Source of the DNA: Naegleria gruberi
Lineage: Eukaryota
Assembly: GCA_000004985.1 (NCBI GenBank)
Contig: GG739504.1
Length of the DNA: 1,203 nucleotides
Direction: 5' to 3' (one strand)
In this document: one piece after another, positions 1-1,203 of the stretch
How positions within the stretch are numbered: the first letter of the stretch is position 1
Layout: the number at the start of each line of letters is the position of its first letter
The notes under the pieces: generated by a model
Databases searched by the model: none
What the model saw: the letters and a program-made list of their open reading frames with translations, nothing else
What the model was told of the DNA's origin: nothing
Translations under genes and position numbers: made by a program

Positions 1-11
1 AGGAATAGAAT

Positions 12-1178
12 TTAGGTAATTGGTTGGAATGATGACACAGGATTGTTTGTGTTATTAAGAAATAGAGACTGAATTTGTGAAGGACAATTATTGCAATTCC
101 AAACTTGTGAAATGGACTTGAAACCATAGAATAGATTACTAGTACTTGATCTTACTATGAGTGGCTGATTGAGTGTTAGTGGTGACAGGACTCTATTAAG
201 GGAACTTCCAGATGCTGTCGATAGAATAGAAATTGCACCCATTGCATTCACTTGTAACACCACATTACTTGGTATTAGATTCAATGTTGTTCCGTGCGTT
301 ATAGAATGATTGAAACCAAGATAAATTCTCAAGCCTTGAGAAGTGAAATCACAACTAACCATGGAAGAATCTCCAAAGGATAAAATATCATTTTGTGAGA
401 AGAAATCTTGACAATATTTGGTACTAGATGGTATGTATGCCAGTATTGGAGGATATGAAGCTGAAAGGATTGCATTAGGCCCATCCAAGTCAATTTGCAG
501 AAATTGACATTGGTTTCCTCTATATCCAAGTTTGCATTGGCAGTTGTTATAGGAAATACAATCACCAAAAGAGGAACAAACGGTGGTGTCATTTTGCAAT
601 TTTCCATAACAAACAGCAATATCGCAATTTGGGCCAGTATATCCTGTATTGCAGGAACATAAATTATAATTCGAACACTTTCCCCTTCCTGAACAAACAG
701 CAGATTCATTACTGGAATAATTGAAACATCTTGTGATCTCACAATTCTGGCCATACCATCCATTGAAACATTGGCAGATATCAGGTGAGATACATAACCC
801 ATTTGAGCTACAAATATTACTGTTGTTTGAGGCTACATCATTACAGATAGTATATTGGCAATTACTTCCAACATATCCTAAATTACATGAACATAAATTT
901 GGACCTACACAAGTTCCATTACCACAACCGAGCCCGAATAATGCATTTCCCACTGTGTTTTTAACACCTGCACACAAATATGATTGACACTCTGAGTCAA
1001 AATATCCTGCATTACAAGTACAATTATTAGAACTTAAACAGGCTCCTTTTCCAGAGCAAACGTTGGAAGATGCTGATGATTTTCCAAAGCATGCTGTAAT
1101 TTGACATTCAGTTCCAGTATACCCATTCGAGCATGAGCATGTGTTGGGGAGAGAGCAGTTTCCTCCACCTGAACACAC
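12..1178 (-). CDS. Extracellular-type cysteine-rich protein: one N-terminally truncated and five complete tandem EGF-like domains followed by a ~165-aa Cys-poor C-terminal domain; 5' end probably incomplete (no ATG; annotated start is GTG)
   Basis: 388-codon uninterrupted ORF ending in TAA at 12..14. Six-fold periodic Cys pattern C-x10(15)-C-x5-C-x5-C-x-C-x8-C with a conserved CxCxxG[YW]xGxxC motif, typical of EGF-like folds. Many N-x-S/T sequons (NCS, NGT, NNS, NYS, NES, NDT, NHS, NNT). In-frame TGA at 1185..1187 lies two codons upstream of the GTG at 1176..1178; no ATG anywhere at the N-terminus. Confidence 0.85.
   Translation of the reverse strand: MCSGGGNCSLPNTCSCSNGYTGTECQITACFGKSSASSNVCSGKGACLSSNNCTCNAGYFDSECQSYLCAGVKNTVGNALFGLGCGNGTCVGPNLCSCNLGYVGSNCQYTICNDVASNNSNICSSNGLCISPDICQCFNGWYGQNCEITRCFNYSSNESAVCSGRGKCSNYNLCSCNTGYTGPNCDIAVCYGKLQNDTTVCSSFGDCISYNNCQCKLGYRGNQCQFLQIDLDGPNAILSASYPPILAYIPSSTKYCQDFFSQNDILSFGDSSMVSCDFTSQGLRIYLGFNHSITHGTTLNLIPSNVVLQVNAMGAISILSTASGSSLNRVLSPLTLNQPLIVRSSTSNLFYGFKSISQVWNCNNCPSQIQSLFLNNTNNPVSSFQPIT
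15..506 (-). other. Cys-poor C-terminal domain of unknown family (aa ~225-388 of the ORF), beta-strand-like alternation, terminal W-N-C-N-N-C motif
   Basis: After the last EGF (C224) only 5 Cys occur in 164 residues. There are alternating hydrophobic/polar runs (LRIYLGF, VVLQVNAMGAISILST, LIVRSSTSNLFYGF) and a CNNC motif at nt 84..95. There is no hydrophobic C-terminal stretch, so no obvious TM or GPI signal. Confidence 0.5.
507..1175 (-). repeat. Tandem array of EGF-like domain coding units (period ~117-129 nt; repeats at protein level, DNA-level identity only moderate)
   Basis: Approximate plus-strand spans of the domains. EGF1 (partial, lacks C1) is 1104..1175. EGF2 is 987..1091. EGF3 is 858..974. 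EGF4 is 741..845. EGF5 is 624..728. EGF6 is 507..611. Complete units have 6 Cys with identical spacing; linkers between units are 4 aa (QITA, QSYL, QYTI, EITR, DIAV). The cbEGF consensus (D-x-D-E-C) is absent, so these are probably non-calcium-binding EGF. Confidence 0.75.
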
Positions 1179-1203
1179 ATTTGAATCATTAGAATATTTA
1201 CCA
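1169..1203 (-). other. Candidate intron 3' end / splice acceptor (pyrimidine-rich tract ...tattctaatgattcaaatgtgtgttCAG | GTGGAGGA) upstream of the truncated first EGF domain
   Basis: Minus-strand sequence 1203->1169 reads tggtaaatattctaatgattcaaatgtgtgttcag immediately before the Gly-Gly-Gly codons. It is more AT-rich than the ORF body, carries an in-frame TGA, and ends in YAG. EGF1 lacks its first Cys, which should lie ~11 codons upstream. Confidence 0.3.

Follow-up and report, generated by a model that had tools for sequence, protein, structure and literature searches.

A small Naegleria gruberi scaffold with an internal fragment of a large EGF-repeat surface-protein gene, most likely of a receptor-like kinase family

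The scaffold and its reading frame

We analyzed a 1,203-nucleotide (nt) stretch of DNA from Naegleria gruberi, hereafter the window, which is one entire small scaffold (contig GG739504.1) of the Sanger whole-genome assembly of this organism. N. gruberi is a free-living amoeboflagellate of the Heterolobosea, within the Discoba. We are strongly persuaded that the scaffold carries an internal fragment of a gene for a large surface protein, most likely a member of a receptor-like kinase family. The minus strand holds an intron-free internal part of this nuclear gene, whose product is predicted to be extracellular or exposed at the cell surface. The G+C content of the window is 36.6% (63.4% A+T, computed), in keeping with the roughly 60% A+T that a first-pass annotation, made from the letters alone, had estimated by eye. 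The N. gruberi genome measures 40.9 Mb at 35% G+C and was Sanger-sequenced into 1,977 scaffolds (PMC9928731 Table 1); the composition of the window and the tiny size of the contig are consistent with that assembly.

A mechanical open reading frame (ORF) call places an ORF that begins with GTG at positions 12..1178. The long minus-strand ORF of the first-pass annotation is thus present, and it is the sole long frame; the remaining five frames contain only short ORFs of at most 157 amino acids (aa), all of which overlap it. When translation is begun at base 1202, eight additional sense codons precede the GTG, and the first stop encountered is the TAA at 14..12. The putative GTG start is an internal valine (Val9) of a frame that remains open to the end of the contig. 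Because the frame runs off the contig, two arguments attached to that start become moot, namely the missing Shine-Dalgarno sequence, given that the GTG is not a start codon, and the proposed continuation of the N-terminus across an intron, none being needed.

A search of 5.8 billion proteins matched the minus-strand translation at 100% identity to XP_002667990.1/EFC35246.1 across all 384 aa of that record, which is titled "predicted protein, partial [Naegleria gruberi]". The fragment is an already public, partial predicted protein of N. gruberi, and the finding is in this sense ordinary. In comparison with our frame, the deposited model begins with GGNCSL at window base 1166, 12 codons downstream of the limit that the contig end sets. 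The 12 codons upstream of the deposited start (window 1166-1202, minus strand) align with an EGF module at its first loop.

The mixed third-position usage that had been remarked on is borne out by the translated frame, in which G+C at third codon positions is 25.8%, cysteine is encoded by TGT (27) and TGC (12), and glycine by GGA (21), GGT (10), GGG (4) and GGC (3). Serine (14.6%), asparagine (12.1%), cysteine (9.8%) and glycine (9.6%) are enriched, and glutamine (4.8%) is not. Of the Asn/Ser/Gln-rich, low-complexity character first proposed, the serine and asparagine richness holds, whereas the glutamine richness and the low complexity do not, since every 12-residue window of the fragment has an entropy above the SEG-like trigger of 2.2 bits. 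Scans of the window returned zero Rfam RNA families, zero DNA-level repeats with Tandem Repeats Finder, sigma-70-like promoter sites at or below shuffle expectation, and no intrinsic terminator-like sites.

The EGF modules and the domain that follows them

The first 236 residues of the fragment (nt 495-1202) contain 35 cysteines (5 + 6x5) that form six EGF modules of 37-43 aa each (Table 1). The spacing is C-x10(15)-C-x4-5-C-x5-C-x-C-x8-C, the portion C-x4-5-C-x5-C-x-C-x8-C is seen six times, and the linkers are four residues long. Three Pfam models score above their cut-offs: EGF_2 (PF07974; E 7e-23, 81.1 bits against 22.1, in six stretches), EGF_Teneurin (PF23106; E 1e-18, 67.2 bits against 24.3) and EGF_TEN (PF25024; 72.9 bits against 65). 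The array of EGF-like modules recognized in the first-pass annotation is accordingly real. Module 1 lacks its first cysteine, which would lie about two residues beyond the contig end.

Pairwise identity among the six modules is 33-57% at the protein level and 50-63% at the DNA level; with protein identities in this range, the array is old rather than the product of a recent expansion. Module 3 departs from the others in its 15-residue first loop, CAGVKNTVGNALFGLGC. Its counterpart in the N. gruberi paralog XP_002674574.1 (P0008) is likewise atypical, and this likeness suggests that the modules of the paralogs correspond one-to-one, as opposed to having arisen by independent repeat expansion.

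The calcium-binding consensus D/N-x-D/N-E/Q-C does not occur in the linkers (QITAC, QSYLC, QYTIC, EITRC and DIAVC), and the Pfam EGF_CA model has no match. The modules are of the non-calcium-binding, teneurin/tenascin type. The best matches among PDB sequences are the EGF regions of teneurin-2/3 (E 2.5e-10). The modules resemble teneurin and tenascin arrays in being tandem, six-cysteine units without the calcium consensus and with short, four-residue linkers, and they differ from these arrays in a long first loop (10 residues) that often bears a glycosylation sequon.

Frequent N-x-S/T sequons had been taken as a sign of a glycoprotein. The fragment contains 10, against 9.5 +/- 2.6 in shuffles of the same composition, and the count therefore carries no information beyond a composition rich in N, S and T. 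In four of the six modules, a sequon (NDS, NNS, NES or NDT) lies at a common position in the first loop, 3-5 residues before the second cysteine. The paralogs often have a sequon at the matching position (e.g. SNDSNVC and QNETSLVC).

A weaker relative of the EGF region is a 645-aa protein from a Logan assembly (P0006), which has two regions matching PF11999 together with four to five EGF modules with long first loops, an unusual combination of domains.

Table 1. Features of the 1,203-nt N. gruberi scaffold
Feature	Position	Strand	Basis or remark
Partial coding sequence, 396 codons	15..1202	-	5' end open, runs off contig; stop-free translation
EGF module 1 (aa 1-37)	1092..1202	-	First Cys absent; aligns with complete modules of P0008
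EGF module 2 (aa 38-76), six Cys	975..1091	-	Pfam and Cys pattern
EGF module 3 (aa 77-119), atypical, 15-residue first loop	846..974	-	Cys pattern
EGF module 4 (aa 120-158)	729..845	-	Pfam and Cys pattern
EGF module 5 (aa 159-197), best EGF_2 stretch at aa 165-193	612..728	-	Pfam and Cys pattern
EGF module 6 (aa 198-236)	495..611	-	Pfam and Cys pattern
Post-EGF domain, 160 aa (aa 237-396), Cys-poor, beta-rich	15..494	-	HMMER, alignment, AlphaFold
First-loop sequons (aa 5-7, 126-128, 165-167, 204-206)	about 1182-1190, 819-827, 702-710, 585-593	-	
GTG of the ORF call, internal Val9 of the fragment	1176..1178	-	Eight sense codons upstream
TAA stop	12..14	-	11 nt from contig end; alignment column where paralogs continue
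11 bases past the stop	1..11	-	Too short for interpretation

The remainder of the fragment, which we call the post-EGF domain, has no Pfam match at E<=10. When 1.84 billion representatives of 50%-identity clusters were searched exhaustively with HMMER, only six proteins with this domain were returned. One of these is the query's own record; the others are named proteins of N. gruberi (three) and N. fowleri (one), or short fragments that cluster with them, and, separate from these, a short ENA fragment (P0012). HMMER E-values against the four full-length members range from 1.5e-15 to 1.4e-09, and in the aligned relatives the domain always adjoins the last EGF module directly. Going by these searches, the post-EGF domain is Naegleria-specific, all of its named carriers being Naegleria proteins. 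An AlphaFold model built from a six-sequence alignment consists mostly of strands in its first 90 aa, where pLDDT (predicted local distance difference test) is 77-89, and is poor in the rest. Foldseek found nothing in the PDB below E 0.5 for this model, only a vague trend towards Ig-like sandwiches, and a profile search against PDB sequences gave nothing meaningful.

Kinship with Naegleria receptor-like kinases

The proteins closest to the window translation, apart from its own record, are 31-41% identical to it, and the named relatives all belong to N. gruberi, N. fowleri or N. lovaniensis. The full-length carriers of the post-EGF domain (P0008, P0011, P0013 and P0014) are 1,759-2,807 aa long. 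Members of the family are XP_002674574.1 (2271 aa), XP_002673894.1 (2807 aa) and XP_002673750.1 (1759 aa) of N. gruberi and XP_044565022.1 (2266 aa) of N. fowleri, the last of which bears the UniRef name "non-specific serine/threonine protein kinase". The window aligns colinearly with the full-length Naegleria paralogs at 35-37% identity over 389 aa; residues 1-389 correspond to residues 771-1166 of XP_002674574.1 (37% identity, E 1e-74) in an alignment that spans the junction between the EGF array and the post-EGF domain.

All four full-length carriers have the same architecture, in which NHL repeats are followed by the EGF array, the post-EGF domain and several hundred residues that no Pfam family covers; a single strongly hydrophobic helix comes next, and a Pkinase domain forms the C-terminus. 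The consensus of the paralog alignment retains HRD and DFG, and the N-terminal segment of P0008 and P0011 is hydrophobic and resembles a signal peptide. The window has in common with these proteins the type of EGF module and a post-EGF domain placed directly after the last of them. It differs in covering only about 400 aa of the ectodomain and in having a stop at a point where they run on, and the contig holds no NHL, transmembrane or kinase part.

The nearest other N. gruberi protein is just 37% identical to the window translation. At this distance, the scaffold is neither an allele nor a duplicate of an assembled gene; it represents a member of the family, the rest of which the 2010 assembly either lacks or holds in scattered form. 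Colinear paralogy makes it most likely that the gene is one of a family of type-I receptor-like Ser/Thr protein kinases in Naegleria. The predicted order in this family is a signal peptide (where the N-terminus is complete), NHL repeats, the EGF array, the post-EGF domain, some 600-900 further ectodomain residues, one transmembrane helix and a cytoplasmic kinase. Reasoning from the paralogs, this gene most likely carries NHL, transmembrane and kinase parts as well. The EGF/post-EGF stretch might then form a rigid, disulfide-bonded and probably N-glycosylated stalk, which would keep the ligand-binding NHL modules apart from the membrane-proximal signalling part. A literature search found no work on Naegleria NHL or EGF receptor kinases.

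Several observations weigh against placing the window among the receptor kinases. The frame ends at the TAA, with more than 1000 aa still to come in the paralogs, so that at face value this copy would have neither a transmembrane helix nor a kinase. The nearest paralog is distant enough that the rest of the gene is not assignable. Kinase-less proteins with NHL and EGF regions (P0003, P0005 and P0007) occur in Naegleria, and the model of the post-EGF domain is poor past its first 90 aa and has no Foldseek match below E 0.5.

The stop codon is central to the most serious alternative, in which the TAA is genuine and the gene is a truncated member of the family, either a pseudogene fragment or a secreted, soluble NHL/EGF protein without transmembrane helix or kinase. 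The stop stands in the deposited sequence, the NCBI model terminates there too, and two of the kinase-less Naegleria proteins provide precedents (P0003, 637 aa, and P0005, 406 aa with a C-terminal hydrophobic tail). We nevertheless consider such a truncation unlikely, for homology to the receptor-kinase paralogs reaches to within two to three residues of the stop, which interrupts a conserved stretch and is not at a domain boundary. It lies three residues past the invariant Pro162, and the residues of the paralogs in its alignment column are L, L, Y and N. The TAA is one substitution away from TTA (Leu) or TAT/TAC (Tyr), and such a single change would fit three of the four paralogs aligned at that column. 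Moreover, the contig has the length of roughly one or two Sanger reads, and the stop is just 11 nt from its end, where base quality would be expected to be lowest. The TAA may stem from an error at the end of a read, from a nonsense mutation in a paralog that is decaying, or be the true end of a shorter protein.

An intron might also account for the stop, with only 11 nt remaining past it. However, from the TAA onwards the remaining bases offer no GT, and use of the nearest upstream GT (in CCT GTG TCA) would remove residues for which the paralogs still have aligned counterparts.

The idea that a prokaryote encodes this sequence as a eukaryote-like EGF adhesin, or that eukaryotic DNA contaminates a nominally bacterial or archaeal assembly, deserves next to no credence. 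No support was found for either, the idea having entered as a conditional remark of the first-pass annotation, which had also mentioned horizontal acquisition; neither contamination nor transfer is supported, the only public record found being the N. gruberi assembly itself. With tblastn, no relatives were confirmed in 185,579 bacterial and archaeal species (one genome each) or in JGI metagenome contigs, both collections giving pattern matches only. Scans for exact 36-mers of the window had 0 hits in either collection. All relatives that bear a name come from Naegleria, the genus to which the named carriers of the post-EGF domain are confined, and the ORF, being cut by the contig end, offers neither a start codon nor a ribosome-binding context. 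The best matches are not confined to bacterial EGF proteins, the outcome that the annotation had said would tell against a eukaryotic origin. The N. gruberi record and the zero prokaryotic relatives effectively refute the prokaryotic and contamination readings. The central statement of the annotation, that this is a eukaryotic protist gene for an extracellular EGF-repeat protein and not a prokaryotic one, is upheld by the perfect N. gruberi match, the Naegleria-only named relatives and the lack of prokaryotic ones, and the window is not to be treated as a prokaryotic oddity, a horizontal transfer or contamination.

The description "invertebrate-like" found no support. A metazoan fragment of a teneurin/tenascin-like gene can be set aside with near certainty: the best-named EGF matches are indeed teneurin-type Pfam models and teneurin chains in the PDB, but the teneurin matches are weak (E 1e-10) and confined to EGF modules of a generic kind, Naegleria supplies the closest proteins, and the full identity to the N. 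gruberi record rules such an origin out. Teneurins have a type-II orientation, with the EGF array N-terminal to an ectodomain of NHL, YD-shell and Tox-GHH parts. The paralogs of the window run in the reverse order, from NHL through EGF to a C-terminal kinase, and unlike teneurins they have no Pfam match to YD, Tox-GHH or any teneurin-specific domain beyond NHL and EGF.

A predicted GAIN-like domain in the paralogs

A further property concerns the paralogs, in a region outside the window. The motif C-x9-W-x3-G-x20-22-C-x3-HL[ST]xFSV occurs about 30 residues before the transmembrane helix in three of the four full-length paralogs. The Pfam GPS and REJ models do not match the paralogs, and a profile search of the juxtamembrane region against PDB sequences returned nothing. 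Residues 1639-2011 of XP_002674574.1 were modeled with AlphaFold together with three paralogs (pLDDT 80.1; predicted template modeling score, pTM, 0.72). In the model, a helical subdomain is followed by a beta-sandwich whose last strand starts directly after the HLS motif. Foldseek related the model to the extracellular region of ADGRG3 with a probability of 1.00, the top rows (RmlT, root-mean-square deviation ~16 A) being spurious. The modeled paralogs thus appear to combine the features that define a GAIN domain, which are a helical subdomain A, a beta-sandwich subdomain B, a GPS with HL before T or S ahead of the last strand, and a position next to the membrane.

The GAIN domain is a hallmark of adhesion G protein-coupled receptors (GPCRs) and polycystin-1-like proteins and is ancient, being present in Dictyostelium and Tetrahymena (PMC3321182), and its link to the seven-transmembrane (7TM) region has been dated to stem holozoans (PMC12716839). 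In contrast to adhesion GPCRs and the polycystin-1 family, the GAIN-like domain of the paralogs precedes a single transmembrane helix and a protein kinase, and not a 7TM region or an eleven-transmembrane channel. We tentatively propose, with somewhat less than even confidence, that the window belongs to a family of giant single-pass receptor kinases, specific to Naegleria, in which a GAIN autoproteolysis domain closes the ectodomain. In our literature search, Naegleria was not found together with "GAIN domain" or "GPCR proteolysis site", and the word "kinase" is absent from Arac et al. 2012 (PMC3321182). The pairing of a GAIN domain with a single-pass kinase that follows it may therefore not have been described before; it is a predicted property of the paralogs and not of the window. 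This GAIN-kinase architecture is the sole item here that may merit separate follow-up; if the domain is functional, a deeply branching eukaryote would be using GAIN in proteins other than adhesion GPCRs and polycystins.
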